Positions 1,089 to 57,028 of a stretch of 64,000 bases of DNA are shown piece after piece (position 1 is the first letter of the stretch; every line of letters begins with the position of its first letter). The position numbers were made by a program, and so were the translations under genes. The DNA lies in NCBI RefSeq assembly GCF_016717175.1, contig NZ_JADKFZ010000004.1, one strand, 5' to 3'. The notes beneath the pieces are model-generated. The model worked only from the letters and a program-made list of their open reading frames with translations. It ran no database searches and was not told the origin of the DNA. This DNA is from Nannocystis sp. (GTDB taxonomy: Bacteria > Myxococcota_A > Polyangia > Nannocystales > Nannocystaceae).

Positions 1089-1189
1089 GCGCGCGCTTGT
1101 AGCAGCTTCGTCGCCGAAAATCACAAGGCGCCCGGCCGCAGTGCGGTCGGACGCCTCGAAGTGAATGGCGGAGGAAGTGCCAGCGAAGG

Positions 1190-1573
1190 CTAGCGGAGCG
1201 CCTCGCGCAGACGCGGGAGGGTGTCGGGGATGACGACGCTGACGAGGATACCGAGCGAGGCCTTGCTGCAATCGACGGCCATACCCCAGCGGTACTTGGG
1301 GTCGAGGTCGATGACGACGATCATGACCTGACCGTCCTCACCGAGGCGCAGCATGGTCTGGTGGAGGTAGTCAGGCACGGGGAGGCCGGACTTCTTGATC
1401 GTCTCGCCGATGCGCTCGCACAGGATGTTGAAGAGGGCGCAGGCCTTGGGGGAGCTGCGGATGCCGGCGACGGACATGCCAGACGATTTGCTGAACACGT
1501 CCGCGGCAGCCAAGCCGCCCTGCAAGCCGTCTTCGACCTCGGCCATCAGTGCATTTACGGTCTTCAGGTTCAT
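1190..1573 (-). CDS. Roadblock/LC7-like (MglB-like) small protein
   Basis: 127 aa with size and hydrophobic pattern typical of the roadblock/LC7 fold. Diverse composition, unlike GC-shadow ORFs. Confidence 0.45.
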   Translation of the reverse strand: MNLKTVNALMAEVEDGLQGGLAAADVFSKSSGMSVAGIRSSPKACALFNILCERIGETIKKSGLPVPDYLHQTMLRLGEDGQVMIVVIDLDPKYRWGMAVDCSKASLGILVSVVIPDTLPRLREALR

Positions 1574-1786: not shown

Positions 1787-2254
1787 TCAGAAGCTCAGGC
1801 CCCGGATCGGGTCTGGCTCGTCCTTCTGGCTCTCCTTGAGGTAGTGCTGGGCCGCGCGGCGAAGCAGCGTCTTCAGCTCTTCGGTGTCCCAGGGCTTGGT
1901 GACGTACTGCCACATGAGGCCCTCGTTGAGACCGCGGATAACCACATTGATGTCCGCATAACCAGTGATGAGGATGCGGACGGGCGTCGGGTTGATCGCC
2001 TTGAGCTTGCCGAACAGCTCGACGCCGGTCATCTCCGGCATGCGCTGGTCGCTGAGGACGAGGTGGATCTCCTGGTCGCGGAAGATCTGCAGCGCCTCGG
2101 CGCCCGAGTTCGCGGTGTGGACCTTGAACATGTCGCGGAAGCTCTCCTCGAGCGTGTTGAGGATGCCGCGCTCGTCGTCGACGATGAGCAGGGTCAGCGT
2201 CTTCTTGTTCTCGGTCCCGAGGGCGCCGGTCTTCTGGTATTCCTTCCAACTCAT
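1787..2254 (-). CDS. Single-domain response regulator (CheY-like receiver)
   Basis: LLIVDDE...D...LVLSDQRMPEMTG...TGYAD...K receiver motifs. 155 aa with ATG start. Confidence 0.85.
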   Translation of the reverse strand: MSWKEYQKTGALGTENKKTLTLLIVDDERGILNTLEESFRDMFKVHTANSGAEALQIFRDQEIHLVLSDQRMPEMTGVELFGKLKAINPTPVRILITGYADINVVIRGLNEGLMWQYVTKPWDTEELKTLLRRAAQHYLKESQKDEPDPIRGLSF

Positions 2255-2384: not shown

Positions 2385-3803
2385 TCACGGTAGGTCTCCT
2401 GTACCACCGTCCGCGCCGCGTACGTAGCGAAATGTGGACGCGAAGTGGCGGATTCCCGGCGCCTCGACCTCGAATCGCAGGCCGTGGCGCAGTTTGGGGC
2501 CCTTCTCCTCGAACACGCTGCGGATTACGTCGGCGACGTATTCGAGGTGCTCAAAGGTGTAGACGCGCCGGGGGATGGTGACGCGGCACAGGTCGAGGTT
2601 CGGGCGGATGTTCTCGCCGGTGTCGGGGTCGCGGCCGATGAGCACGCTGCCGACCTCGACCGCACGCACGCCGCCCTCCTTGTAGAGCTCGGCGCACAGC
2701 AGCTGCGCGGGGAACTCGTCCTCGGGGACGCCGGGGAAGAACTTGCGGGCGTCGATGAAGACCGCGTGGCCGCCGATCGGCTCGACGATCGGCACGCCGA
2801 ACTTCTGCAGGAGCTCGCCGAAGCGGCGGACCTGGCCGATGCGGTAGGCCAGGTACGACTCGTCGGTGACCTCGCGCAGGCCCTGGGCCAGCGCCTCCAT
2901 GTCAGCGCCCGACATGCCGCCGTAGGTGTAGAAACCCTCGAACAGGATCGTCGGGGCCTTGAGGCGCTCGTACAGGAGGTCGTCGCGCACCGCGATGAAG
3001 CCGCCCATCGGCACCAGCGCGTCCTTCTTGGCGCTCATGATGCACGCGTCGGTGTACGAGCACATCTCCTGCACGATCTCTGGCACGGACTTGTGGGCGT
3101 AGCCGGTCTCGCGGGTCTTGATGAAGTAGGCGTTCTCGGCGAAGCGGGCGGCGTCGAGGACCACGAGCAGGCCGTACTGGTCGGCGACGCGGCGGACCTC
3201 GCGGATGTTGGCCATCGACACCGGCTGGCCGCCGCCGGAGTTGCAGGTCACGGTGACGAGCACGTAGGCGACGTGGCGGGCGCCGTACTCGCGGATGACG
3301 CTCTCGAGGCGGGGGATGTCGATGTTGCCCTTGAAGGGGTGGTAACCCTCCGAGGTGCGGCCGGCGTCGATTGTGCAGTCGATCGCGCGACCGCCCGCGA
3401 ACTCGATGTGGGCCTTGGTCGTGTCGAAGTGCGAGTTGCCGGGCACGATCATGTGCTTCTTGATCAGCACGAAGTCGAAGACCCGCTCGCCGGCGCGGCC
3501 TTGATGGACCGGGATGGTGTAGCGGTAGCCCATCGACTCGCGGATCTGCCGCTCCATCTCGAAGAAGGAGCGCGAGCCGGCGTAGGCCTCGTCGCCGATC
3601 ATCATGCGGCCCATCTGATGGACCGAGAGGGCCCCGGTGCCGCTGTCGGTGATGAGGTCGATGTAGACCTCGTGCGAGCCGAGGCGGAACAGGTTGTTGC
3701 CGCAGGCTTCGATCCTGCGGACCCGCTCCTCGTACGGCAGCAGCGAGATCGGTTCGACGACCTTGGCCCGGTACGGGATGATCTGTCGCTCAGGTTTCCT
3801 CAT
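2385..3803 (-). CDS. Beta-eliminating lyase: tryptophanase / tyrosine phenol-lyase family (PLP-dependent)
   Basis: 473 aa from the internal ATG at 3803 ([19 protein letters not shown]...). Strong similarity along the whole length to TnaA/Tpl, including the SAKKD PLP-lysine region. The long R-rich N-terminal extension of the listed ORF is rejected. The ATG overlaps the upstream kinase stop as ATGA. Confidence 0.85.
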   Translation of the reverse strand: MRKPERQIIPYRAKVVEPISLLPYEERVRRIEACGNNLFRLGSHEVYIDLITDSGTGALSVHQMGRMMIGDEAYAGSRSFFEMERQIRESMGYRYTIPVHQGRAGERVFDFVLIKKHMIVPGNSHFDTTKAHIEFAGGRAIDCTIDAGRTSEGYHPFKGNIDIPRLESVIREYGARHVAYVLVTVTCNSGGGQPVSMANIREVRRVADQYGLLVVLDAARFAENAYFIKTRETGYAHKSVPEIVQEMCSYTDACIMSAKKDALVPMGGFIAVRDDLLYERLKAPTILFEGFYTYGGMSGADMEALAQGLREVTDESYLAYRIGQVRRFGELLQKFGVPIVEPIGGHAVFIDARKFFPGVPEDEFPAQLLCAELYKEGGVRAVEVGSVLIGRDPDTGENIRPNLDLCRVTIPRRVYTFEHLEYVADVIRSVFEEKGPKLRHGLRFEVEAPGIRHFASTFRYVRGADGGTGDLP

Positions 3804-5815
3804 GTGCTCCCCACGGAGGTGGTCTTCGGCGCCTCCGCATCCACCGGGAAGCGGATGAGGAAGGTGACGCCGGTCGGATCGTTGCGCCGCACCGAGATGG
3901 TGCCGCGGTGCTCCATGATGATTCGGTAGCTGATCGAGAGGCCGAGCCCCGTGCCCTTGCCGACCGGCTTGGTGGTGAAGAACGGGTCGAAGATCTTCGA
4001 CATGTTCGCCTCGCTGATGCCCTCGCCGTTGTCCGAGACCGTGATCTCGACGAAGCCCTCGTTCTCGCGTGTGCGCACCGCGACCTCCCCTCCACGCTGA
4101 CACGCGTCGATGGCGTTGTTCACAAGGTTTAGTACCACCTGGTTCAGCTTCGCTGGGAAGCACGAGTGCGGGCGTGCCAGCCGCAGCTCGGACACCAAAG
4201 TCACGCCTTTGTCGCGCGCGTTGTTGCCGAGGATCATCAGCGTCTGGCGGATGCCCTCGTCGATGTCTGCGGTCTGGAATTGCGCCTCGTCGAGTCGGGC
4301 GAAATTGCGCAGCCCGAGCACGATCTCCGCCATGCGATCGAGGCCGATGAAGCTCTCCTCGAGCACCTTCTGCGTGCGCGCGAGCAGCTCCTCGATCGAG
4401 CCCTCGTCTGCCTCCTTGCGGCGCAGGACGTAGGTGAAGAAGTCGCGGAGCATGTCGAGCTGCCGCGGCGGCGGGAGCGAGCCGAGCTCGTTGCTGACGT
4501 CCTTCACGTCGGCGGCGAGGGCCTTGTCCTGGGCCAGCTTCTCGAGCGTGGTGCGGCCGGCGGCGATGCGCTCCGACTGCGGGCCGTCGACCCGCGCGAG
4601 CCAGTTCGTGGCGGCCAGGCGGCGGCTGACCGAGGTGACGCGGGCGTGGGCGAGGTGGGTGTTGTTGCGGCTGAAGGCGAGCGGGTTGTTGATCTCGTGG
4701 GCGACGCCGGCGGTGAGCTGGCCGAGGCTGGCGAGCTTCTCGCTCTGGACCAGCTGGGCCTGCGAGGTCTTGAGCTCGTGCAGCTGCTCCTTGACGGTGT
4801 CGTAGAGCTGGTTGTTGGTCAGCGAGACGGCGGCCTGGCTGGCCAGCGAGAGGGTGAGCTCGAGCGACTGGTCGTCGTAGGGGATGACGACCTCGTCGAT
4901 GTTGCCGGCGCGCAGCTCGGCCGCCCGCGAGGTCTTGCGGTTGATGAGCTGGAGCACCCCGATCACGCGGTCCTCCTGGTTCTTCATCGGCAGGACCAGC
5001 ATCGAGCGGGTGCGGTAGCCGGTGCGCTGATCGAAGGCGGGGCTGAAGCTGAACTCGGCGCGCGGGTCGAGCTCGTAGACGTTGGGGATGTTGAGCGGCT
5101 CACCGGTGGCGGCGACGTAGCCGGCGAGGGTCGACTTGCTGACGGGGATGGCGAACTTGACGAGCTCGAGGTCGGGCAGCGAGTCGTTCTGCGAGCTGGT
5201 GAAGCGCAGGCGACCCTGGCCCTCGTCGTCGCGCTCGAGGATGTAGAGCGAGCCGGCGTCGGAGCTGGTGAAGTCGCGGGCCGTGGTGAGGATGAAGTTG
5301 AGCAGGCGCTCCGGGTCGCGCTCGGCGGACAGGGCGATGCCGATGCGGTTGAGCTTGGTGATCTCGCCGGCGAGGCGGCGGCGCTCGTGCTCGAGGGCGA
5401 AGCAGCGGTCGGCGGCGGCGGCCTCGCGCACGGCGCAGCGCAGCGCGACGGCCAGCGCCTGCGGGTCGCCGTCGGGCGGGAGGATGAAGGAGAGGGCGTC
5501 GCCGAGGCGCTCGCGCAGGTTCGCGGCCGCGGGCGCGGGCAGCAGCGCGAGCACCCGCAAGGTGTGTCCGGGGGCGACGCGCAGCTCGGTGCCCTGCAGC
5601 GCCTCGTCGAGCAGCACGACGAGCGGCCGGCCGCGGCGGTTGCTCAGGGCCCGCTCGAGCTCGGCACGGTCGAGCGCTCGCAGCTCGCCAGGGAGGCCGG
5701 CGCCAGCCGCCGCGAGCGGGGACTCGGCGAACGAGCGCGAGCACAGCACGAGCGGTCTGGACTCGTCGGGGGCATGCACCGAAGCTGTCTCATTCGAATG
5801 CACCTGGGTGGCCAT
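3800..5815 (-). CDS. GAF-domain sensor histidine kinase
   Basis: Internal ATG at 5815 (MATQVHS...). Contains a GAF domain, the H-box HEINNPLAF, and a C-terminal HATPase_c with N, G1 and G2 boxes. The R-rich N-terminal extension is rejected. Confidence 0.85.
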
Positions 5816-6087
5816 GGTCGGGGATGCGGACGGCAAACACAAGCGAAACGGCGGCGCTGCGGCCCACAGCGGACGCCGGTGTATGCACACAGGTCGCGTG
5901 GGGCCGCGAGGCCGCGGTGATGTGAGCGAGGCTCGCGGCGGGCGCATGTGTTCGCCGCGCGGCTCGGCACACATCGTCCGCGGATGCACGTGGCTGCGGC
6001 GCTGGGCTCGGCATCGGCGATGCGCCCGGGTGCATCGCGCGACGTCGCGCGCCGCGGCGTTGCGTTCGGTGGCGACACAAAGGGCGC

Positions 6088-6180
6088 CGCATTGGCCGAC
6101 GCATTGGCCGACGCAATGGCCGCCGCAATGACACATTGGCCGCCGCATTGGGAGCCGCATTGGCCGCCGCACTGGCTGAC
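6088..6180. repeat. 12-bp minisatellite (GCATTGGCCGCC-like) x~7 in the HK upstream region
   Basis: cattggccgacgcattggccgacgcaatggccgccgcaatgacacattggccgccgcattgggagccgcattggccgccgcactggctgac. Confidence 0.8.
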
Positions 6181-6240
6181 GTCGGTGGCGACGCCGGTGC
6201 ATTGCACGTGCCCGCTGGCGCGGCGGGCACGTGCAGGATC

Positions 6241-7608
6241 TCAGTCGACCTTGGGCAGGGCCGCCATCGCGGCCTCGATCGCCTCGGCCGGGTACTCGTA
6301 GTCGGCGAGGCTGCCGTTGTTGAACGCGTCGTAGGCCGACATGTCGAAGTGGCCGTGGCCGCAGAGGTTGAACAGGATGACGGGCGATGTGCCGGCCTCG
6401 GTGGCCTTGGTCGCCTCGCGGATGACCTGGGCGATCGCGTGGGAGGCTTCGGGGGCCGGGACGATGCCCTCGCTGCGCAGGAACACGCGGGCCGCGGTGA
6501 AGGCCTCGAGCTGGCGGACCGCGTGGGCCTCGATGATCTTCTGATCGTAGAGCTCGCTGATGATGCTGGCCATGCCGTGGTAGCGCAGGCCGCCCGCGTG
6601 CACCGGCGGCGGGATGAAGGCGGCGCCGAGGGTGTGCATCTTGATCAGCGGGGTCATGCCGGCGACGTCGCCGAAGTCGTAGGCATAGACGCCGCGGGTG
6701 AGGCTCGGGCAGGCGGCCGGCTCGACGGCGAGGATCCGGATGTCCTTGTCGTGGGCCAGCTTGTCGCGCACGAAGGGCAGGGCGATGCCGGCGAAGTTGC
6801 TGCCGCCGCCGGTGCAGCCGATGACGATGTCGGGGTAGTCGCCGGCGCGTTTGAGCTGCAGCATCGACTCCTGCCCGATGATGGTCTGGTGCATCAGGAC
6901 GTGGTTGAGCACCGAGCCGAGGGCGTACTTGTACTTGCCGCCGCTGGTCGCCGCGGCCTCGACGGCCTCGCTGATCGCCATGCCGAGCGAGCCGGTGTTG
7001 TGCGGGTCCTTCTCGAGGATGGCGCGGCCGCAGTTGGTGAGGTTGCTCGGGCTCGCGTTGACCGTGGCGCCGAAGCTCTGGATCATCGAGCGGCGGTGCG
7101 GCTTCTGGTCATAGCTGACGCGCACCATCCACACGAAGCACTCGAGGCCGAAGAAGTTGCAGGCCTGCGAGATGGCGGTGCCCCACTGGCCCGCGCCGGT
7201 CTCGGTGGTGAGGCCCTGCACGCCCTCTTGCTTGTTGTAGAACGCCTGCGGGACGGCCGTGTTGAGCTTGTGGCTGCCGCTCGGCGAGCCGCCCTCGTAC
7301 TTGTAATAAATCCGGGCGGTGGTCCCGAGGGCCTTCTCCAGCCGGCGCGCGCGCAGCAGCGGCGTCGGGCGCCACAGCTTGTAGATCTCACGGACCTCCT
7401 CCGGGATCTCGATGAAGCGCTCGCGGCTGACCTCTTGCTTGATCAGCTCCATCGGGAACAGCGGGGCGAGGTCCGCGGGTCCGATCGGCTGATGCGTCCC
7501 CGGGTGTAGCACCGGGGGTAGCGGTCGCGGCAGGTCGGCCTGGATGTTATACCAGCGGGTCGGGATCGCACTCTGTGGCAGGTCGAATCGCGTCACGGAC
7601 TCAGTCAT
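6241..7608 (-). CDS. trpB: TrpB2-type tryptophan synthase beta subunit-like PLP enzyme
   Basis: 455 aa, ATG at 7608. The N-terminus MTESVTRFDLPQSAIPTRWYNI and HK..N PLP-lysine region are typical of the TrpB2 (indole-salvage) clade. The upstream 600 codons of the listed ORF are rejected. Confidence 0.85.
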   Translation of the reverse strand: MTESVTRFDLPQSAIPTRWYNIQADLPRPLPPVLHPGTHQPIGPADLAPLFPMELIKQEVSRERFIEIPEEVREIYKLWRPTPLLRARRLEKALGTTARIYYKYEGGSPSGSHKLNTAVPQAFYNKQEGVQGLTTETGAGQWGTAISQACNFFGLECFVWMVRVSYDQKPHRRSMIQSFGATVNASPSNLTNCGRAILEKDPHNTGSLGMAISEAVEAAATSGGKYKYALGSVLNHVLMHQTIIGQESMLQLKRAGDYPDIVIGCTGGGSNFAGIALPFVRDKLAHDKDIRILAVEPAACPSLTRGVYAYDFGDVAGMTPLIKMHTLGAAFIPPPVHAGGLRYHGMASIISELYDQKIIEAHAVRQLEAFTAARVFLRSEGIVPAPEASHAIAQVIREATKATEAGTSPVILFNLCGHGHFDMSAYDAFNNGSLADYEYPAEAIEAAMAALPKVD

Positions 7609-7855
7609 TCGCGGCTCCAATGCGGCCCATGATATCGCGGTCACAAGCCCGCGGGAACACTCGATCGTCGATCGCTTGCACGGCGAGCGGCGCGACTTCG
7701 CGGCGGAGCGTGGTCGTCGCGATGGGTCGATGCGCGTACACGCGTCGGTGCGGCGCGCGGCGGTGCTCGCAGGATGACTCTTGGGACATGTCCCAAGGGT
7801 CACTGGCAGAATCGCCGCGTCGCGCGCGAACGCCCGAGGGGTGCTGGACCGGGGC

Positions 7856-7912
7856 GGCCTGATCGGCGGCCTGATCGGCGGCCTGATCGATGGCCCGATT
7901 GATGGCCCGCGG
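7856..7912. repeat. 12-bp minisatellite (GGCCTGATCGGC)x3 + (GGCCCGATTGAT)x2 between the AGCS and trpB2 genes
   Basis: Direct reading. Confidence 0.8.
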
Positions 7913-7928
7913 TGGCCAGTCAGGCGGG

Positions 7929-9710
7929 TCAGGGGCGGGGCTGGTGGGGGCGGACGGGGAACTCGCCGGCGCGCAGGCGCGCGAAGTATCCGCGGTAGGC
8001 GGTCATCGTGACGCCGCCGAAGAGCAGCATGATCGGGATGTTGACCCACAGCATGATGCCGGTGCCGACGGCGGTGATGTTGTCCAGCTCCTCCTCGGTG
8101 GTGATGACACCGGCGCAGGCGACGACGATGCTGACGCAGTAGAAGATCTTGTAGGGGAGGACGCTGCGTCGGCCGGCCATGTAGACCATGCCCTGCTCGC
8201 CGTAGTAGGCCCACGAGATCATGGTCGAAACCGCGAACAGCCACGAGGCGATCGCGACCATCCATTTGCCGAGGCCCGGTGAGACGCGATCGAAGGCGTG
8301 GCTGGTGAGGGCGGCGCCGACGTAGTCCTTGTAGACCTCGGTTGTGTGGAGCGTCGGCGCGACGGCGAGCGGGCCACCGGGGGCGCCCACGGGGGCCCAC
8401 GTGACGGCAAGGCGATCTCCCTCGTCGGGCCCGTTGGTGTCGTCGGGCCCGTGGGTGTCGACGCGGACGACGGTGCCGGTGACGCGGCGCAGGTCGGTGC
8501 CGCTGCCGACGTCGACGGCGCCGTAGCGGGCGAGCAGGAAGACGTTGTCGCCGAGGCGCCAGTCGCTGCCGCTGATGGCGAGGCTCTCGGGGCGCTTGGG
8601 CGGGAGCGGGGTGTCGGGCAGGTCCCACACGCCGGGCTCGACGGCGACGAAGCCCGGCGGCGTGACGAGGGCGGCCTCGCCGTCGCGGTTCCAGGCGCCG
8701 CTCGAGAGCACCACCAGAGAGGTGAGGGTGCAGACGACGATGGTGTCGATGAAGGGCTCGAGGCCGGCGACCACGCCCTCGCGCACGGGCTCGGTGGTCT
8801 TGGCGGCGCAGTGGGCGATCGGCGAGGAGCCCTGGCCGGCCTCGCAGGAGAACAGGGCCCGCTTCATGCCCCACAGCACGGCCATGCCGAAGGTGCCGCC
8901 GACGAAGGCGCCGCTGGCCTCGGCGGGGTTGAAGGCGCTGACGACGATGAGGCGGAGGATGCCGGGGACCTCGCCGATGGTGTGGCCGAGCACGTAGAGC
9001 GCGGCGATCAGGTACATGCCGCACATCGCCGGGACGATCGCGCCGGCGAAGGCGCCGATGCGCTTGATGCCGCCGAGGATCACGAGGCCGACCAGCACCG
9101 CCAGGATCACGCCGACGATCGGCTGCGGCACGCCGAAGGACTCCTCGGTGACGACGCCGACGTTCCAGGCCTGGAACATGTTGCCGCCGGTGATGGTGGA
9201 GATCAGCAGGGTGATGCAGAACAGGACGCCGAGGGTGCGGCCGAGCCAGGCGAGCTTGGGGCTGCGCTGGCGCAGGCCGTCGTCGATGACCCACATCGGG
9301 CCGCCGCTCGGCTCGTCGGGGTTGTCGGTGCGGCGAAACAGCATCGACAGGGTGACCTCGGTGGTCTTGAGGGCCATGCCGGCGAGGCCGACGACCCACA
9401 TCCAGAACACGGCACCCGGGCCGCCGAGAGCGATCGCCACGGCGACGCCGCCGATGTTGCCGAGGCCGACGGTGGCCGAGAGCGCGGCGGAGAGGGCCTG
9501 AAAGTGGTTGATGGCGCCGGGGTCGCGGGCGTCATCGTAGGCGCCGGTGATGACGCGGACGCCGTGGGTCAGCGCGTGGTACTGGCAGAAGCCGCTCCAA
9601 ATGGTGAACAGGAGGCCGACCGCGAGGACGATGTAGAGCACGCTGTCGTGCCAGATCACCGCGTTGATGGCGGTCAGCCAGTCGTTGAGGCCCGTGCGCA
9701 GCGCGTCCAT
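7929..9710 (-). CDS. Alanine/glycine:cation symporter (AGCS family) with a large inserted soluble loop
   Basis: AGCS signature regions (GLGNIGGVAVAI, multiple TM helices). An insertion of about 110 aa (VTPPGFVAVEPGVWDLPD...APTLHTTEVYKD) lies between TM segments. Confidence 0.85.
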   Translation of the reverse strand: MDALRTGLNDWLTAINAVIWHDSVLYIVLAVGLLFTIWSGFCQYHALTHGVRVITGAYDDARDPGAINHFQALSAALSATVGLGNIGGVAVAIALGGPGAVFWMWVVGLAGMALKTTEVTLSMLFRRTDNPDEPSGGPMWVIDDGLRQRSPKLAWLGRTLGVLFCITLLISTITGGNMFQAWNVGVVTEESFGVPQPIVGVILAVLVGLVILGGIKRIGAFAGAIVPAMCGMYLIAALYVLGHTIGEVPGILRLIVVSAFNPAEASGAFVGGTFGMAVLWGMKRALFSCEAGQGSSPIAHCAAKTTEPVREGVVAGLEPFIDTIVVCTLTSLVVLSSGAWNRDGEAALVTPPGFVAVEPGVWDLPDTPLPPKRPESLAISGSDWRLGDNVFLLARYGAVDVGSGTDLRRVTGTVVRVDTHGPDDTNGPDEGDRLAVTWAPVGAPGGPLAVAPTLHTTEVYKDYVGAALTSHAFDRVSPGLGKWMVAIASWLFAVSTMISWAYYGEQGMVYMAGRRSVLPYKIFYCVSIVVACAGVITTEEELDNITAVGTGIMLWVNIPIMLLFGGVTMTAYRGYFARLRAGEFPVRPHQPRP

Positions 9711-10954: not shown

Positions 10955-12013
10955 CTAGCACTTGTCGGGGTCGACGGTGACGATGTCGGCGCACAGCGGG
11001 CCGAGGGCGCCGGCGATGGCGTTCTGGTCGTCGGGGGTCACGCCCTTGTTGGTCATGGCGGTGAAGAGGTGACCGACGAGGGCGTCGAAGTCGGCCTTCT
11101 CGATGCCCATGGCCATCCCGTCGAGGAGGTCCTTGTGCGAGGTGATCATGTCGAGGCAGGGCTTGGCGGCGCCGACGTTTGGATCGGCGGGGGCCGGGGC
11201 GTCGACCTCCTTGCCGTAGATGTCGGCGATCGGCTTGGCGCCGCCGACGGTGGCGCTGGCGACCTGGCGGACCAGGCAGGTCTTGAGGCGCGTGAGGTCC
11301 GAGGTGGCGAAGAAGCTGTTGATGGTCGCGTCCATGGCCACGAGGGGGACGAAGCTGTCGGCGTCGTCGATGCCGCCGATGACGCTGGCGATGCCGGGCT
11401 TGCGGCCGATCCGCTGGTAGACCGTGACGTCGTTGTTGGCGTCCTCGACGATGTCGGGGGCCATGCCGGCGAGCACGTCGATCACGGCGGCCTTGTCCTC
11501 GGCCGTGAGGGTCGCGACCTCGTCCATCGCCGCGCCGAAGTCGGTGGCGAGGTCGGTGAAGTCGGCGGTCGAGATGCCCATGCCCGCGTGGGCGGTCTTC
11601 ATGTCCATGCAGCCGTAGACGACGCCGGCGCAGCCGACCGCCGCGCCGACCTGGGTCGCGAGGCAGTTGGTGAGGTTGCCGCCGTCGACGTCGGTGGTGA
11701 GGAAGTAGGCGTTGATGCCCTCGTTGACGAGGACCTTGCCCACGAAGCTGTTGATCACGGCCTCGACGCCGGCCTGGCCGCCGAAGTTGGTGCAGATCGG
11801 GCCGTCGGCGGGCTCACCGGTGGAGCCGCTGCCGGTCGGGGTGTCGGTGGCGCTGCCGGTCGGGGTGTCGGTGGCGCTGGCCGTCTCGGTCGCGCTGGTC
11901 GGGCTGCCGGAGGTGCTTGCGTTTTCGGTGTCGTCGCCGCCGCCAACCACGCAGGCTGGCAGGAGGCCAACGGCGCCGACGAGGGCGAGGGATGTGAAGA
12001 TTCGAAGGGCCAT
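10955..12013 (-). CDS. Lipoprotein with two truncated-hemoglobin (2/2 globin, group I-like) domains
   Basis: ATG at 12013 preceded by AGGAGAAG. Lipobox signal peptide (MALRIFTSLALVGAVGLLPACV). Two repeats carry the trHb F-helix-like motif (DMKTAHAGMGISTADF and DGMAMGIEKADFDALV). Confidence 0.6.
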   Translation of the reverse strand: MALRIFTSLALVGAVGLLPACVVGGGDDTENASTSGSPTSATETASATDTPTGSATDTPTGSGSTGEPADGPICTNFGGQAGVEAVINSFVGKVLVNEGINAYFLTTDVDGGNLTNCLATQVGAAVGCAGVVYGCMDMKTAHAGMGISTADFTDLATDFGAAMDEVATLTAEDKAAVIDVLAGMAPDIVEDANNDVTVYQRIGRKPGIASVIGGIDDADSFVPLVAMDATINSFFATSDLTRLKTCLVRQVASATVGGAKPIADIYGKEVDAPAPADPNVGAAKPCLDMITSHKDLLDGMAMGIEKADFDALVGHLFTAMTNKGVTPDDQNAIAGALGPLCADIVTVDPDKC

Positions 12014-12347
12014 GGGTTCAACTTCTCCTGGGTTAGTGGGTCGCAAGGTGCTTCGCGGGCGAACGCGGCCGGAGGACCCCGCGAGCGGGTCCGGCGTCCA
12101 AGAATGTGTCATGCGCTGCAGCGTCGCCCGGGCGCGAAGTACCTCCGCCCGCGGGCCAGTGTGCCACGGGTCGAGGGGCGAGTGCGTGTCGTGGGCCGCG
12201 TCGAGCTCGCGCTGGTGCGCTGGCAGTTGCGAGCGCGGCGCCGATGCGCAGCGGCTTGCGCGGGGTGTGGCGTGAGGGGCGGCGAGGATCATGGTCGCGG
12301 AGGTGCAGCGCCACGGCGTGGCCCGGGCGGCGGATCGCCGCGAGGGA

Positions 12348-13380: not shown

Positions 13381-14913
13381 TCAGCGCGGGAGCAGGCGGG
13401 CGTCGCGAGCGGCGAGGGCGAAGGCGCGGCGGCGGGCGTCGTCGCTGGCCGGGCTGTCGTCGATCGGGGCGGCGGCGGCGACGCGGAGGCGCAGGCCGGC
13501 GAGGCTCTCGTCGTCGAGGCGGGCCAGGAGATCGAGGAGCAGGCCGACGCGCATGGGATCGCGGGCGGGGGCGTCGAGCTCGCGGCGGAGCAGGGCGCGG
13601 GCGGCGTCGGGGCGGTCGCGCAGCAGCAGCGCGGCGCGGGCGAGGGCGTGGCGGCGGGTGAGCTCGGTGGGGCTGTTGGCGGCGGCGGTGGCGGTGGTGG
13701 TCGCCGTGGGGCTGCTCGCGGCGGTGCGCAGCCAGGTCGCGGCGAGCTCGGCGATCGCCTGGTCTTCGGGCCAGGTGAGGGGGACGCGGGGCGGTAGGGG
13801 GCGGCTGCCCTGCTCGGGCGGCGCGGGGCTCAGGGCGCGGGTCTCGTCGATGCGGCGCTCGAGCAGGTCGGCGTACTCGAGGAGGTCGCGGTCGGCGAGC
13901 TGGGCGCGCAGCATCTCGGCGACGGGGGCGACGCCGTGCGGGCTCGGGGGTTCGCCGGCGAGGAAGAGGGCGCGCTGGAACACGAGCTCGACGAAGCGGT
14001 GGTCGAACAGGCGGTCGAACTCGTGGAGGAGGGGGAGCAGGGCGCTTGGGCCCGGGCCGCCGCTGCGGGCGAGGCGTTCGGCGACGCCGCTGCCCTGGAG
14101 GTGTCGGCGGGTGCGCTGGTGTTCGACGGCGAGGAGGGCGTCGGCGCTGAAGTGAGGCGTGCGCTCGAGGGCGAGGACGGTGGTGAGGAGCTGGGCTTCG
14201 GTGCTGGCGAACAGGGCCTCGAGGCCGGCGACGCGGCGTTGCCAGTACATGCGACACAGCTCGCGGCCGAAGTGGAGGAAGCGACCGGCGAGCACGCGGG
14301 CGAGCGGGGGCAGGGGCTCGTCGGCGAGGCCGAGCTGCAGGAGGGCCTCGTGGTGGACGCGGGCGAGGTAGGCGGTGGCGCGGGTGCGTTGGTCCTGGGA
14401 CAGGCCGCTCTGGGTCTGCTGGACGATCGCCAGCTGCACGGCGGCCAGCACCGCGTCGGTGACCGGGCTGACGGTGGCGGTGACGGGGTCGGGGAGCTCG
14501 GTGAGCGGGGCGAGGCTGGGGTCGGCGCGATCGAGGGCGACGAGGCGGGCGATGCCGGCGAGGTCGGGGGTGGCGGCGAGGCGGGGGGCGAGGGCGGCGG
14601 CGGCGGCGGGCGAGTCGGCCATGCGCAGGGCGTGGCGGAGGATCGCGGGGGTCGTGGGCGTGGTCGGGCAGAGGTCGAGGAGGATCGCGGCGTCGGGTGG
14701 GTGCACGGCGGCGGCGACGGCGAGCTGCTCGCAGGTGTCGATGCGCGCGGGCAGGGCGGCGGGCGCGGGGGCGGCAGGTGGTGGGACGGCGGCGACGGTG
14801 TGGCGCGCGAGCGGCTCGGGCAGGCCGGTGGGGTCGGGCTCGTCGGCGCAGGCCGACAGGGCGACCAGCGAGGCGACCAGCGAGGCGAGGACGAGGCGGC
14901 GCATGCGAATCAC
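13381..14913 (-). CDS. Hypothetical lipoprotein (510 aa)
   Basis: Signal peptide with lipobox (MIRMRRLVLASLVASLVALSAC). Helical, non-repetitive body. GTG start overlaps the stop of the PilZ gene (GTGA). Confidence 0.6.
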   Translation of the reverse strand: MIRMRRLVLASLVASLVALSACADEPDPTGLPEPLARHTVAAVPPPAAPAPAALPARIDTCEQLAVAAAVHPPDAAILLDLCPTTPTTPAILRHALRMADSPAAAAALAPRLAATPDLAGIARLVALDRADPSLAPLTELPDPVTATVSPVTDAVLAAVQLAIVQQTQSGLSQDQRTRATAYLARVHHEALLQLGLADEPLPPLARVLAGRFLHFGRELCRMYWQRRVAGLEALFASTEAQLLTTVLALERTPHFSADALLAVEHQRTRRHLQGSGVAERLARSGGPGPSALLPLLHEFDRLFDHRFVELVFQRALFLAGEPPSPHGVAPVAEMLRAQLADRDLLEYADLLERRIDETRALSPAPPEQGSRPLPPRVPLTWPEDQAIAELAATWLRTAASSPTATTTATAAANSPTELTRRHALARAALLLRDRPDAARALLRRELDAPARDPMRVGLLLDLLARLDDESLAGLRLRVAAAAPIDDSPASDDARRRAFALAARDARLLPR

Positions 14914-15527
14914 TCGTCGACGAGGCGGCGGATGACCTCGCGGAGGCGGGTGACGCCGCCCATGTCGCGGGCCATGAACTCGATGCCGGCGCCGTGCTCG
15001 TGATCGGTGTTGCGAATGATCGCCTGGACCTCGAGCGGGCGGGCGCTGCCGGGGGGCGTGATCTCGACGATGAGCTCCTCGCCGACGGTGAGCGGGGTCG
15101 GCGTGAGCAGCAGGGCGCCGACCTCGGAGATCTCGGAGATGGTGGCGGCGGTGAAGTCGGACTCGCCCTGACGGCGCAGGCGGATCTCGACGAGCACGGG
15201 CTGACGGATGTGGCGGCGGCGCTGGTCGAACTTCGTGCGGCCGCTCGCGACATCACGCAGGAACTGCAGCTTGCGCCACTCGCTGCCGACGCAGCGGAGC
15301 ACCCCGCCGGCGCGCACGCGCAGGCGCGGGCGGGCGTTGTGCCACTTCTTGCCGACGGCGCGGACCATCAGCTTGCCGGGCAGGCCGGTGAAGAAGACCT
15401 CGCAGAGCAGCTCCTCGCCGGGCTCGAAGCGCTCGGTGGTGTAGACCTGCAGGCCCTGCTCCTCGCTGGGGAGCAGCGCGGCGATGAAGGCCTCTCCGGA
15501 GAGGTAGTGACAGCGGATTCTTCGCAA
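14910..15527 (-). CDS. PilZ-domain protein (YcgR-N-like plus PilZ)
   Basis: PilZ c-di-GMP motifs RRRHIR...D-x-S-x-x-G (QRRRHIRQPVLVEIRL ... TISEISEVGALLLT). No ATG is available, so a TTG at 15527 is proposed. Upstream part of the listed 496-aa ORF is rejected. Confidence 0.55.
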   Translation of the reverse strand: MRRIRCHYLSGEAFIAALLPSEEQGLQVYTTERFEPGEELLCEVFFTGLPGKLMVRAVGKKWHNARPRLRVRAGGVLRCVGSEWRKLQFLRDVASGRTKFDQRRRHIRQPVLVEIRLRRQGESDFTAATISEISEVGALLLTPTPLTVGEELIVEITPPGSARPLEVQAIIRNTDHEHGAGIEFMARDMGGVTRLREVIRRLVDE

Positions 15528-15620
15528 CGTGGAGTACGGTCCTGGTGCCCGGCGTGGGCGAGAGGCGATGCTCGTCGGCCGGCAAGGTAACAGCACCGGG
15601 CTCGCGCTCGCAAGCGCGGC

Positions 15621-55603: not shown

Positions 55604-57028
55604 ATGAAGCAACCGCAGGATGAGATGGTGTGGATCGACCACAACGGCGTCGCGCACCCGCTCGGCGAGGTGGCGACGGCCCGGATGGGCCAGCGCGAGG
55701 GGGCCTATCGGATGCTGCCCACGCCGGGCCACGTGGTGCTGCTGCGCTTCACCGGCAACGACGGTCGGCGCGACCTCGAGGACGGTCCGATCGTGCGGAT
55801 GGCCGGTGAGATCACGGCCAGCGGCGACATGGCCGACGTGCTCGCGGTGCTCGGGCACATCGGCACGCGCGGCGAGCTGGTGGTGATGGATGGCGAGGTC
55901 ACGCGCAGCGTGTTCTTCGAGCACGGCAACATCGTCGGCGTGCAGACCAACGCGGAGGACGAGCGCATCGGCATGCTCCTCTACAAGTACGGGGTGCTCA
56001 GCGAGGAGCAGATCCTCCCGGTGCTCGAGCGGGCCCGCAAGGGCGACCTGTTCGGCATGGCCGCGGTCGAGCTCGGCCTGGTCTCGCAGGATGTCATCTA
56101 CAAGTATCTGGCGCGCCAGGTCGAGGAGGTGGTGTTCGCGGTGCTCGCCGCGGCCGACGGCGCGTACTGCTTCCTCGACGGCTTCGACGAGGCGCGCCTG
56201 GCCTCGCGGCAGGTCGTCAGCGCGACCGCGCTGCTGATGAATCACCTCACGCGAATCGACGAGATCCGGCATCTTCGGCCCTGGATCCCGTCGGCGGAGT
56301 ACGTGCCGCTGCGCCTGGCGCCGCGCTCGGCGGTGGCCAGCGAGCAGGCGGTGGTGTGGGACGCGATCGACGGCATCAGCAGCGTCGGCGACATCGGTCG
56401 CGGCACCGGGCTCGGCGAGTTCGAGGTGACCAAGCAGCTGTTTCACCTGAGCCAGGCCCAGCTGGTGGCGATCCATCCGCCGAAGCTGCGCGGCGGGATC
56501 GGTGAGGTCGTCGAGCTGGCCAACGCCGGTCTGCGGGCGATCCACCAGGCCGCCGACGCGGGCGGGCGCGGCACGGCGCTGCGCAACAACCTCATCGCCT
56601 TCTCCCGCGGCGACTACGAGGCGCTGCTGCGCGGCGCCGGGCCCTTCGAGCACGGGGGCTTCGGCGCGCCCGCGCTCGTGGTCAACAGCGCGGGCCTCCG
56701 CCCCGCCTCCGAGGTCGAGACCTTCGTGCGCGAGATGCTCTACGACTACGTGTCCTTCGCGCTGTTCAGCGCGACGGCCTCGCTGGCCAACACCACGTTG
56801 TCGGCCGAGGTCGAGCCGCTGCTGGCCCGGCTGCGCCCGCTCGGTCAGTCGGGGCGCTATCTGGTCGGGCGTCGCCAGCCAGGTGGTCCCGGTGGCGGCG
56901 GTTTCGGGGGTGGCTTCGGTGGGGCCGGGGCGTCTGGGTCGGGCGTTCGCTCGAGCGAGGACTCGGACCCGGGCGGGGCGGGCTCGTCGGGCTCGGGCGG
57001 GGCGGACTCGTCGGGCGCGGCGCTCTGA
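55604..57028 (+). CDS. DUF4388 (PATAN-like) domain protein with G/S-rich C-terminal tail
   Basis: LAVLGHIGTRGELVVMDGEVTRSVFFEHGNIVGVQTNAEDERIGMLLYKYGVLSEEQ is a DUF4388 core. Confidence 0.75.
   Translation: MKQPQDEMVWIDHNGVAHPLGEVATARMGQREGAYRMLPTPGHVVLLRFTGNDGRRDLEDGPIVRMAGEITASGDMADVLAVLGHIGTRGELVVMDGEVTRSVFFEHGNIVGVQTNAEDERIGMLLYKYGVLSEEQILPVLERARKGDLFGMAAVELGLVSQDVIYKYLARQVEEVVFAVLAAADGAYCFLDGFDEARLASRQVVSATALLMNHLTRIDEIRHLRPWIPSAEYVPLRLAPRSAVASEQAVVWDAIDGISSVGDIGRGTGLGEFEVTKQLFHLSQAQLVAIHPPKLRGGIGEVVELANAGLRAIHQAADAGGRGTALRNNLIAFSRGDYEALLRGAGPFEHGGFGAPALVVNSAGLRPASEVETFVREMLYDYVSFALFSATASLANTTLSAEVEPLLARLRPLGQSGRYLVGRRQPGGPGGGGFGGGFGGAGASGSGVRSSEDSDPGGAGSSGSGGADSSGAAL

Follow-up and report, generated by a model that had tools for sequence, protein, structure and literature searches.

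A tryptophanase gene in the 64,000-nt stretch of Nannocystis sp. DNA that we analysed (the window) lies between the genes of a soluble sensor kinase and a stand-alone receiver, and the same order occurs in 13 distinct related Myxococcota loci from Nannocystaceae, Polyangiaceae-labelled and unclassified genomes. We propose, with a probability of about 0.45, that a conserved operon of myxobacteria of the Nannocystaceae and Polyangiaceae type expresses an indole-forming tryptophanase together with a dedicated, cytoplasmic two-component pathway. Since relatives keep the arrangement, the making of indole seems to be firmly wired into a signalling pathway. The locus is a non-canonical tna locus assembled from known parts; the input ligand of the kinase and the output of the pathway are what we infer for it.

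Gene order and the kinase-lyase junction

All genes of the finding are encoded on the minus strand, as judged from a GC3 frame plot and the translations. The soluble GAF histidine kinase identified with Pfam (3800..5815) is followed by the tryptophanase (2385..3803, 472 aa), a CheY-like receiver (1787..2254, 155 aa; PF00072, 9e-23) and a Roadblock/LC7-fold protein (1190..1573, 127 aa). Kinase and lyase share an ATGA at 3800..3803 on that strand, as the earlier note had stated: in ...GGGGAGCACATGAGG... the ATG of the lyase occupies 3803-3801 and the TGA of the kinase 3802-3800. A Shine-Dalgarno-like GGGGAG lies within the kinase gene, 5-10 nt upstream of the tryptophanase start. A single ATGA overlap is frequent in bacterial operons and is weak proof by itself. 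Of 14 related loci, the window counted, 10 have the same 4-nt overlap (L001, L002, L081, L087, L089, L090, L091, L171 and L172 being the others), at kinase identities as low as ~52%, and L088, a near-duplicate of L087, has it too; L083, L085, L086 and L170 have a gap of 2-24 nt in its place. Such retention is more than chance would give, and the coupling of kinase and lyase claimed earlier is borne out.

The receiver gene is directly 3′ of TnaA in every locus with the triad, the synteny extending over L001, L002, L081, L083, L085-L087 and L089-L091. In the converse test, TnaA and a receiver follow immediately downstream of the kinase gene in three of three distant orthologues, which are 51-53% identical, and kinase orthologues adjoin TnaA in every locus examined. 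Among 150 more distant TnaA loci, just two have a kinase upstream, in both cases one without a GAF domain, and one close TnaA (L082, 80% identical) has neither kinase nor receiver. These comparisons of sequence show triad order and the stop/start overlap to be conserved over deep divergence. The spacer between TnaA and the receiver is enlarged in Nannocystis (82-238 nt), so it may hold an internal promoter or terminator.

The encoded proteins

The lyase (PF01212, 4e-75) scores 627 bits against the tryptophanase subfamily model NF009709, for which the cut-off is 285 bits. The model for the Bacteroidota type of TnaA (NF053783) gives it 567 bits and that for the E. coli type (TIGR02617) 485 bits, so by score it is nearer to the former; both values lie under the equivalog cut-offs. 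The PLP-binding Lys in SAKKD is kept, as are the catalytic Tyr and Arg residues. At the positions that separate indole-lyase from tyrosine phenol-lyase, taken from PMC5805759, it has D/F/V/V/H where phenol-lyase has T/M/M/R/F; all five match indole-lyase, with one conservative Ile-to-Val. The phylogeny, proposed earlier as a means of telling TnaA from Tpl, places the lyase within a Myxococcota TnaA clade, adjoining Bacteroidota TnaA and distant from TPL, and the kinase-linked TnaAs form one subclade. Of the two products suggested earlier, indole is predicted and phenol is not expected, the lyase being of the tryptophanase type with the specificity residues of an indole-lyase.

Two starts are available to the kinase, ATG 5815 (671 aa) and GTG 5779 (659 aa, 3800-5779), the latter being used for the 100% identical NCBI protein P0217. 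A promoter-like block (see below) overlaps ATG 5815, so that GTG 5779 is the likelier true start; residue numbers here refer to the 671-aa form. The protein comprises a pseudo-receiver (aa 20-140), a cNMP-type GAF domain (aa 165-335), a DHp domain, which carries H373 and a conserved ~100-aa insert, and a catalytic ATPase domain (aa 555-659). H373 and the N, G1, F and G2 boxes are invariant across 22 kinase orthologues, and by its residues the catalytic core is intact. In the pseudo-receiver only Asp70 is left, the acidic pair, Thr and Lys being gone. The N-terminal model (pLDDT 87.6) gave mainly receiver domains among the Foldseek matches listed, led by the REC-GAF-HK "dual sensor" kinase 6oap. 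Like 6oap, 6oaq and 6ob8, the kinase has a receiver fold, then a GAF domain, then the kinase core; according to the PDB titles, however, the GAF domain of 6oap is light-sensing (green-absorbing) and its receiver binds BeF3-, whereas here the GAF domain is of the cNMP type and the receiver is degenerate. The N-terminal pseudo-receiver and the cyclic-nucleotide-binding type of the GAF domain had both been overlooked in the earlier note.

The best PDB sequence matches of the GAF domain are the cAMP/cGMP-binding GAFs of CyaB2 (1.7e-27), PDE5, PDE2A and PDE10A. It shares the motif DQxTGYRTxS...QLxNK(K) with the CyaB2/PDE domains, and the helix α4 motif and NK segment are common to it and the GAFs of Anabaena CyaB2, PDE2A, PDE5A and PDE10A; it differs in being a putative nucleotide binder carried on a histidine kinase and not on a cyclase or phosphodiesterase. 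The kinase has compatible residues at five of the six CyaB2 contacts, T293, I308, T309, D356 and N359 corresponding to S189, F205, T206, D262 and T265. The adenine-N1-binding Arg291 of CyaB2 is replaced by Ala and the NKFDE motif is merely approximate (N292-R-K ... Y/F-D314 ... E319), so nucleotide binding is not assured. The nearest full-length relatives of the domain are uncharacterised GAF-HD-GYP proteins. Since the GAF is of the cyclic-nucleotide-binding type, a nucleotide second messenger would be no less likely than indole or tryptophan to be the input.

The single-domain regulator described earlier downstream of the lyase is confirmed, and it keeps the canonical D26-D27, D69, T97 and K120 in its translation, residues by which it would be phosphorylatable. 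The solved receivers closest to it are those of the HD-domain regulators 3hv2 and 2rjn, plus HupR.

The 127-aa protein has no match in Pfam or NCBIfam even at E<=10, including none to Robl_LC7. Its AF2 model (pLDDT 92.9) has the topology α-β-β-α-β-β-β-α, and the best PDB matches found with Foldseek are Asgard Roadblock3 and Myxococcus MglB (TM 0.75-0.79). The earlier assignment as Roadblock/LC7, unrecoverable from sequence, is thereby confirmed by a confident structure model. Its gene is 3′ of the regulator in the window, L001, L087, L090 and L091, and upstream of the kinase in L002, L081, L089, L171 and L172; it was not detected in L083, L085, L086 or L170. Confined to Nannocystaceae-type loci, the protein is an accessory to the module in that family, and because it is missing from Polyangiaceae-type loci and occupies two different positions it cannot be a universal output. 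The pairing of a kinase-type ATPase with a Roadblock protein recalls CvnA and CvnB of the Streptomyces conservons (CvnA-D); eight triad loci list no small GTPase or DUF742 protein in their gene tables, nor do the window genes at 1-22.7 kb include one, four further loci (L001, L002, L090 and L091) having been screened by tblastn using window proteins only. MglB and MglC of the Myxococcus polarity module share the Roadblock/LC7 fold, MglB being among the top matches, and MglC resembles the present protein in being encoded with a response regulator, RomR. The part of RomR that MglC contacts is the C-terminal helical region and not the receiver domain (PMC10329633), and MglC is therefore only a loose precedent for contact between receiver and Roadblock protein.

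Upstream neighbours and transcription units

TrpB2, a stand-alone TrpB-like PLP enzyme (6241..7608, minus strand, 455 aa; NF009057, 717 bits, cut-off 366 bits; TIGR01415, 611 bits), and an AGCS amino acid:cation symporter (7929..9710, minus strand, 593 aa; PF01235, 1.7e-113; TIGR00835, 406 bits, cut-off 273 bits) lie upstream on the same strand, as previously described. The symporter carries an insert of ~130 aa that is not in the family profiles. Their inclusion in one module with the kinase and lyase is not supported. Apart from the window, only the five closest Nannocystis loci (L001, L087, L088, L090 and L091) have TrpB2 upstream of the kinase, only L001, L090 and L091 have AGCS beside the module (as far as the contigs extend), and neither gene accompanies kinase, TnaA and receiver at the other Nannocystaceae and Polyangiaceae-type loci with the triad. 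A trpS gene is near the module in relatives and absent at the window locus. By their distribution, TrpB2, AGCS and, in relatives, trpS are genus-level neighbours outside the conserved core.

The interval 5816-6240 is intergenic, as had been stated, yet it holds several elements. Directly 3′ of the TrpB2 stop codon is a terminator-like hairpin on the minus strand (6203..6233) with a perfect 13-bp stem (RNAfold dG -27.8 kcal/mol); GC-rich inverted repeats were seen by eye at the equivalent site in L001 and L087. Between it and the kinase promoter-like block, TRF finds ~8 copies of a 12-nt tandem repeat of the GGCCAATGCG type (6088..6181), and L091 has at the equivalent site a different 8-nt repeat, GATGCGGT, in ~10 copies. 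The block itself, CTTGTGTTTGC-N-TCCCCGACCAT (5814..5843, minus strand), consists of TTGTGT, 17 nt and GACCAT; it is kept in five genomes (the window, L001, L087, L090 and L091) within a spacer that is not conserved, and we infer for it a promoter function.

TrpB2 has elements of its own: a GATATA -10-like box and a Shine-Dalgarno-like GGAG precede its ATG and are conserved in five genomes, and the spacer between AGCS and TrpB2 contains a perfect 18-bp palindrome, CTTGGGACATGTCCCAAG (7780..7797), a candidate operator upstream of TrpB2; L090 and L091 conserve its core GGGACATGTCC and the flanking TCTGCCAGTGAC, and L087 does so in part. The hairpin after TrpB2, the promoter-like block and the elements of TrpB2 make several transcription units in the same direction likelier than one, and TrpB2 and the kinase are probably in separate units. 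An intrinsic-terminator-like hairpin right after the Roadblock gene (1118..1167, minus strand; RNAfold dG -28.7 kcal/mol), followed by TTGTGATTTTC, is the probable 3′ end of the operon.

Proposed pathway, alternatives and known systems

In the proposed operon, transcription would run from the promoter-like block before the kinase to the hairpin after the Roadblock gene, and translational coupling would fix the ratio of kinase to TnaA. The soluble kinase would use its GAF pocket to sense a small molecule in the cytoplasm; as this pocket is of the type that binds cAMP or cGMP, a cyclic nucleotide is the likeliest ligand. The kinase would pass phosphate to the receiver, which, having no DNA-binding domain, would have to act through protein contacts; the Roadblock dimer would be the obvious candidate partner. 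TnaA would cleave tryptophan to give indole along with pyruvate and ammonia, and overall indole, which is membrane-permeant, would be released in step with the same signalling state inside the cell. In Nannocystis the probably separately transcribed TrpB2, AGCS and, in relatives, trpS could plausibly recapture indole into tryptophan. In Stigmatella aurantiaca, according to a citation in PMC3126691, myxospores are induced by indole.

This sporulation response of another myxobacterium would also suit an autoinducer loop, in which the GAF kinase would serve in the cytoplasm as cognate sensor for the product (indole) or the substrate (tryptophan) of the co-translated TnaA, much as in the signal-synthase-plus-receptor pairs cqsA/cqsS, the lqs cluster and rpfF/C/G. 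Kinase and TnaA are strictly linked both ways, the tryptophan-related TrpB2 and trpS cluster around the module in Nannocystis, and, since indole crosses membranes, a soluble sensor would be enough. We nevertheless hold such a loop to be unlikely: the pocket is like those of nucleotide-binding GAFs, down to residues aligned with the helix α4 cAMP contacts of CyaB2, the receiver has no DNA-binding output with which to close a transcriptional feedback, and we know of no GAF domain that binds indole or tryptophan.

TnaA might instead be a trigger enzyme that binds the kinase and reports tryptophan turnover, or it might be gated post-translationally by kinase or receiver, the coupling setting the stoichiometry of the complex. 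Docking sites could be offered, for example, by the Asp70-only pseudo-receiver or the DHp insert, two conserved regions with no assigned role, and 4-nt overlaps such as those at 10 of the 14 loci typify complex subunits; but ATGA overlaps are common for non-interacting proteins too, four loci have gaps of 2-24 nt, and this TnaA, with all catalytic residues kept, resembles free-standing ones. We find a complex quite improbable. No more credit can be given to plain catabolic co-expression, with TnaA yielding pyruvate and ammonia from tryptophan during starvation or predation under a promoter shared with a two-component system unrelated to indole. Every part belongs to an ordinary family, the nearby AGCS symporter suits amino-acid scavenging, and tnaA of E. 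coli is a catabolic gene under starvation and cAMP control. Against this, the enzyme stays fixed between kinase and receiver despite complete turnover of the flanking genes, which is unlike what passive hitch-hiking predicts, and the kinase orthologues examined are never without TnaA.

Signal-synthase cassettes are known from Vibrio (cqsA-cqsS), Legionella (lqsA-lqsR-hdeD-lqsS) and Xanthomonas (rpfF-rpfC-rpfG). There, as here, an enzyme that makes a small molecule, PLP-dependent in CqsA and LqsA, adjoins a sensor kinase and receiver, and the present receiver is most like those of HD-domain (RpfG-like) regulators. The enzymes are, however, non-homologous; in place of a membrane receptor there is here a soluble kinase that has GAF and pseudo-receiver inputs, and the enzyme lies between kinase and receiver, translationally coupled to the former.

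Gene content and order also bear out the view that the locus departs from the canonical tnaCAB operon. Unlike enterobacterial tnaC-tnaA-tnaB, it has no TnaC leader peptide, for which the overlap of the kinase gene with the tnaA start leaves no room, and no TnaB/Mtr-type permease, the neighbouring transporter being the AGCS symporter, two genes off and probably transcribed separately; the enzyme is instead inside a two-component operon. Both encode a tryptophan indole-lyase whose catalytic and specificity residues agree, so that the same chemistry is expected, and the cAMP dependence of tna expression in E. coli parallels the cNMP-type GAF input proposed here.

Organization and conservation of the kinase-TnaA-receiver unit

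The window has a G+C content of approximately 72%, and a third-position GC frame plot places every gene of the locus on the minus strand. In the direction of transcription, profile searches identified an AGCS symporter (7929-9710; 593 aa), TrpB2 (6241-7608; 455 aa), a GAF histidine kinase (3800-5815), a beta-eliminating lyase (TnaA; 2385-3803; 472 aa), and a receiver-only response regulator (1787-2254; 155 aa). These are followed by a 127-aa protein (1190-1573), to which a structure model gives a Roadblock fold. An NCBI protein from "Nannocystis sp." (P0217), 100% identical to the kinase, has its start 12 codons later, at the GTG at 5779; kinase residues are numbered here from the ATG at 5815. 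The ATGA overlap of kinase stop and lyase start reported in the earlier note is correct in the sequence, coordinates included: the lyase ATG lies at 3803-3801 and the kinase TGA at 3802-3800, with GGGGAG preceding them.

Kinase, TnaA and receiver, in some lineages together with the Roadblock protein, constitute a conserved operon-like unit. The closest genome is that of Nannocystis punicea FL3 (locus L001), where TnaA is 88% identical and the gene order (lipoprotein gene, AGCS, TrpB2, kinase, TnaA, receiver, 127-aa protein) matches that of the window. Apart from the window, the three core genes were found together in 13 distinct loci (L001, L002, L081, L083, L085, L086, L087, L089, L090, L091, L170, L171, and L172), a count which leaves out L088, a near-duplicate of L087 from a sister sample. 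The source labels of these loci include Nannocystis, Nannocystaceae, Myxococcales, Polyangiaceae, and Deltaproteobacteria. Among the loci fetched through TnaA, with this protein at least 58% identical, 11 of 19 carry all three genes, and the TnaA proteins of such loci form one subclade in a neighbour-joining tree. The converse test started from kinase orthologues at only 51-53% identity, and all three of these have TnaA and the receiver directly downstream. Ten of the 14 loci, counting the window, have the four-nucleotide stop/start overlap, and the other four have gaps of 2-24 nt. The genes flanking the three are completely different between lineages, so what selection keeps is the triad itself.

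In several Nannocystaceae loci a divergent gene for a regulator with PatA_N (PATAN) and receiver domains is located just upstream of the Roadblock-kinase-TnaA-receiver genes (L081, 4200-4958; L089, 6305-7066; L171, 3218-3976; L172, 3256-4005). Beyond it lie genes for an S41 peptidase and a cNMP-binding protein, and in these surroundings the module has another conserved neighbourhood, its second. In locus L170 the gene immediately after the receiver encodes a flavin reductase (8982-9470). The TnaA of locus L082 (8001-9449), 80% identical to that of the window and nested within the kinase-linked subclade, adjoins a Kup potassium transporter; kinase and receiver are absent there, which looks like a coupling lost or relocated.

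Of 150 TnaA loci at greater distance (from Bacteroidota, Firmicutes, and other groups), only 2 have a kinase upstream of the lyase. One is a Bacteroidota MAG (L013, 2823-7404), whose kinase, directly upstream of tnaA, consists of HisKA and HATPase only, and where a PALP-family enzyme lies downstream of tnaA; the other is a Bacillota MAG (L015, 7584-11356), with a PAS-containing kinase in the same position. Neither kinase has a GAF domain and neither tnaA is followed by a receiver, and on these grounds the two were rejected as instances of the same system. Kinase and tnaA seem to have become adjacent independently in these two.

Properties of the encoded proteins

The catalytic residues of the lyase, the kinase and the receiver are intact. 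The lyase matches PF01212 (4.4e-75) and the tryptophanase/tyrosine phenol-lyase (TPL) subfamily model NF009709 (627 bits; cut-off 285). In alignments to solved TnaA and TPL the catalytic columns read Y, R, K, R; the protein retains the PLP-binding Lys (SAKKD), the catalytic Tyr (DEAY), and both Arg residues equivalent to R100 and R404 of TPL. Sequence scores alone are ambiguous, because the enzyme falls below the cut-offs of both TnaA equivalogs (NF053783, 567 bits versus 750; TIGR02617, 485 versus 826) and of the TPL model (TIGR02618, 535 versus 721); its PDB matches are likewise ambiguous between TnaA and TPL. The residues that discriminate the two activities are D137, F304, V394, I396, and H463 in the E. 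coli indole-lyase and T124, M288, M379, R381, and F448 in the phenol-lyase (PMC5805759). At these five positions the window lyase has D, F, V, V, and H, four being identical to indole-lyase and one a conservative Ile-to-Val exchange, and at none of them does it carry the TPL residue. Phylogenetic placement between TnaA and Tpl, which had been put forward as a check, locates it by neighbour joining in a Myxococcota clade adjoining the Bacteroidota-type TnaA and far from TPL. The enzyme belongs to a distinct Myxococcota TnaA clade. Taken together, the five residues and the tree position rule out a tyrosine phenol-lyase and bear out the tryptophanase-type call of the earlier note, and we predict that the protein is an indole-lyase, forming indole and not phenol.

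In the kinase the H box with H373 (AHEINNPL) and the N, G1 (DxGxG), F (FDPFFTTK), and G2 (GTGLGL) boxes are invariant in 22 orthologues. HATPase_c is matched at 2.7e-26, and Pfam HisKA scores 24.1, just under its gathering score of 26.9; a conserved insert of about 100 residues separates the two DHp (dimerisation/phosphotransfer) helices. No Pfam family was matched by the first ~140 residues, which are modelled as a (beta-alpha)5 domain (pLDDT 87.6). A Foldseek comparison of this model with the PDB returned mainly receiver domains among the matches listed, at modest TM values of 0.5-0.6, the best listed being 6oap, a REC-GAF-kinase "dual sensor". Of the receiver residues only Asp70, invariant and located where strand 3 ends, is retained, with no acidic pair, Thr or Lys; a receiver fold lacking these makes the domain a pseudo-receiver.

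The GAF domain resembles cAMP/cGMP-binding GAF domains most, its best PDB matches being Anabaena CyaB2 (E = 1.7e-27), PDE5A GAF-A, PDE2A GAF-B, and PDE10A GAF-B. In GAFb of CyaB2, cAMP is contacted by R291, T293, I308, T309, D356, and N359 (PMC4411481), which map to A187, S189, F205, T206, D262, and T265 of the kinase. Five of these six positions are compatible, while the adenine-N1 residue Arg291 is replaced by Ala; the NKFDE-type motif is approximate only (N292-R-K, Y/F313-D314, E319). Because of the likeness to CyaB2 and the phosphodiesterases, the five contacts and this approximate motif, a cyclic nucleotide is most likely as the candidate ligand. The kinase of this locus is a defined bacterial example in which a histidine kinase combines a GAF domain of the cAMP/cGMP type with a pseudo-receiver domain.

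The 155-aa receiver (PF00072, 8.8e-23) shows D26-D27, D69, T97, and K120-P121 in its translation and is without an output domain; the solved structures closest to it are receivers of HD-domain regulators. That the kinase and this receiver are phosphotransfer partners is a prediction drawn only from their conserved adjacency.

Attempts to assign the 127-aa protein from sequence failed, with no Pfam match at E ≤ 10 and no NCBIfam match at E ≤ 0.01, and a structure model was needed, although UniRef names the members of its cluster "Roadblock/LAMTOR2 domain-containing". The AF2 model (pLDDT 92.9) has the alpha-beta-beta-alpha-beta-beta-beta(-alpha) topology of the Roadblock type, and Foldseek matches it to Asgard Roadblock3 and Myxococcus MglB with a probability of 1.00 and TM values of 0.75-0.79. 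The proposed Roadblock/LC7 identity is thus right at the level of the fold. The gene follows the receiver in Nannocystis loci, precedes the kinase in L002, L081, L089, L171, and L172, and is undetectable in L083, L085, L086, and L170. Small ORFs beside the triad in L085, L170, and L083 were considered as divergent Roadblock proteins and discarded (hhalign probability <1%).

A small GTPase is absent from the gene tables available for eight triad loci and from the window genes at 1-22.7 kb, and a DUF742 protein from every locus with a gene table or Pfam annotation; for L001, L002, L090, and L091 the screen was a tblastn search that used only proteins of the window. A Streptomyces conservon comprises the kinase-like CvnA, the Roadblock protein CvnB, the DUF742 protein CvnC, and the GTPase CvnD, whereas here only the kinase and the Roadblock protein are found. 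Since the gene tables covered show neither a GTPase nor a DUF742 gene alongside, a conservon and an MglAB-type module are both ruled out; the locus provides a Roadblock protein without a GTPase partner encoded nearby. MglC contacts the C-terminal helical region of RomR and not its receiver (PMC10329633), so that this pair was set aside as a precedent for a receiver-Roadblock contact and is a loose analogy only.

Transcription units and tryptophan-related neighbours

TrpB2 is assigned by NF009057 (717 bits; cut-off 366), with the canonical TrpB model TIGR00263 reaching only 150 versus 392. The earlier note had joined TrpB2 and the AGCS symporter with the kinase and the lyase in one module, and this part of it did not hold. 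Only the closest Nannocystis loci have TrpB2 upstream of their triad, and AGCS was seen only where the contig extends far enough; a hairpin and a promoter-like block intervene between these genes and the kinase. AGCS has an insert of ~130 residues (approximately aa 365-500) outside the Pfam and TIGRFAM profiles, which is conserved in N. punicea.

The hairpin, a perfect one of 13 bp (dG -27.8 kcal/mol), is situated directly 3' of the TrpB2 stop codon, and GC-rich inverted repeats are visible by eye at the equivalent site in L001 and L087. The promoter-like block before the kinase, CTTGTGTTTGC...TCCCCGACCAT, is readable as TTGTGT-17 nt-GACCAT and is kept in five genomes, while the remaining spacer is not; a sigma-54 promoter was rejected because the spacing, judged by eye, is unsuitable. 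Between hairpin and block lies a 12-nt tandem repeat (6088-6181; GGCCAATGCG-type, ~8 copies). The equivalent site of L091, the closest relative in this comparison, has a different 8-nt repeat (~2760-2840; GATGCGGT, ~10 copies), and the arrays at this site are hypervariable simple repeats. Another 12-nt tandem repeat (GGCGGCCTGATC, ~4.4 copies) occupies 7853-7907, in the second of two consecutive intergenic spacers.

A conserved GATATA box and GGAG motif precede TrpB2. Further upstream is a perfect 18-bp palindrome (CTTGGGACATGTCCCAAG, 7780-7797), which shares its core with L090 and L091, and in part with L087, and is a candidate operator. The Roadblock gene is followed by a strong hairpin (dG -28.7 kcal/mol) and then a T-rich run. 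A consensus scan for sigma-70 promoters and terminators gave sites no commoner than in shuffled sequence and missed the hairpins found by folding; a search of the spacers against Rfam at E ≤ 1 for riboswitches, attenuators and known RNAs gave only two chance-level matches. The likely transcription units are AGCS, TrpB2, and kinase-TnaA-receiver-Roadblock. The spacer between TnaA and receiver measures 82-238 nt in Nannocystis versus 13-20 nt in other lineages, and the long form may contain an internal signal.

Next after the Roadblock gene, and on its strand, a tryptophanyl-tRNA synthetase gene (trpS) is found in L001 (12877-13962; TIGR00233, 248 bits versus a cut-off of 177), L087 (6772-7851), its near-duplicate L088, and L091 (7911-8960). 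Synteny of the window ends at ~1190, where an esterase-like gene (PF00756) occupies the place of trpS, and no trpS is present anywhere in the window. These tryptophan-related neighbours are a genus-level addition in Nannocystis. In the archaeon Thermococcus, TrpB2 enzymes have been connected with the salvage of indole (Hiyama et al. 2014, cited in PMC11085991), and it is therefore plausible that TrpB2, outside the conserved device, recaptures indole beside an indole producer.

Relation to known systems and possible function

In the canonical tnaCAB operon a TnaC leader with a Rho-dependent attenuator precedes tnaA and a TnaB/Mtr-type permease lies downstream. Here the start codon of tnaA falls inside the end of the kinase gene, leaving no leader region, and Rfam revealed nothing relevant to an attenuator upstream; downstream are the receiver and the Roadblock protein, and the sole nearby transporter is AGCS, upstream. 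Without leader peptide and TnaB a canonical tna operon is ruled out, as the earlier note had judged. All parts of the cassette come from known families; in the full-text literature, as covered by titles and abstract openings and with subscription journals mostly outside, no description of a kinase-tnaA-receiver operon was found.

We propose that kinase, TnaA, receiver and Roadblock protein are expressed from a single transcript, and that translational coupling would link TnaA output with kinase output. The kinase would sense a ligand in the cytoplasm, for which a cyclic nucleotide is the favoured candidate, and would phosphorylate the receiver, which would work via protein contacts; in the Nannocystaceae the Roadblock protein is the candidate partner. 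The release of indole would in this way be tied to that signalling state. The cassette may also work like the signal-synthase-plus-receptor cassettes cqsA/cqsS, lqs, and rpf, a working analogy only and one without homology, with the kinase hypothetically sensing the product of the enzyme.

The same gene arrangement could be explained by plain catabolic co-expression of TnaA with two-component genes. Other rivals keep a signalling role: the kinase itself, in place of binding the cyclic nucleotide to which its GAF domain points, could sense indole or tryptophan, or TnaA and the kinase could form a trigger-enzyme complex. Signalling readings are biologically plausible because indole induces myxospores in Stigmatella aurantiaca, a member of the same group (cited in PMC3126691). 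Their strongest form is a dedicated tryptophan/indole signalling device, a TnaA-kinase complex with receiver and Roadblock protein relaying to the motility, polarity or sporulation machinery, and with either TnaA as trigger enzyme or the kinase as indole receptor; we consider this unlikely. If true, it would be the first case in bacteria of an indole synthase fused in function, at the genetic level, with the pathway of its own receptor, and myxobacteria would have a system resembling quorum sensing.

The main value of the coupled cassette we propose is a testable candidate link from indole production to a phosphorelay in myxobacteria. Bacterial indole perception is still poorly defined, and we know of no indole sensor that is genetically linked to tnaA. 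CpxA and IsrR are the sensors named in the parts of the literature consulted; a tnaA embedded in a conserved, translationally coupled two-component pathway offers a concrete protein pair linking indole production and signalling. Should the module govern development or predation behaviour in Nannocystis, an enzyme of great age would be under a new regulatory logic; if not, the locus still neatly exemplifies a tna arrangement specific to one lineage.

Elsewhere in the window, the minus strand encodes a lipoprotein-like protein with a truncated-haemoglobin (Bac_globin) region (10955-12292) and a PilZ protein (14910-15596), and the plus strand a 1237-aa nSTAND1 NTPase with a beta-propeller (34593-38306) and a PATAN/DUF4388 protein (55604-57028). 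An 842-aa MVP-like protein (30864-33392, plus strand) has a major-vault-protein shoulder domain (2e-28), a Vault_3 repeat, and a Band_7/SPFH region; to our knowledge, such proteins are rare in bacteria.
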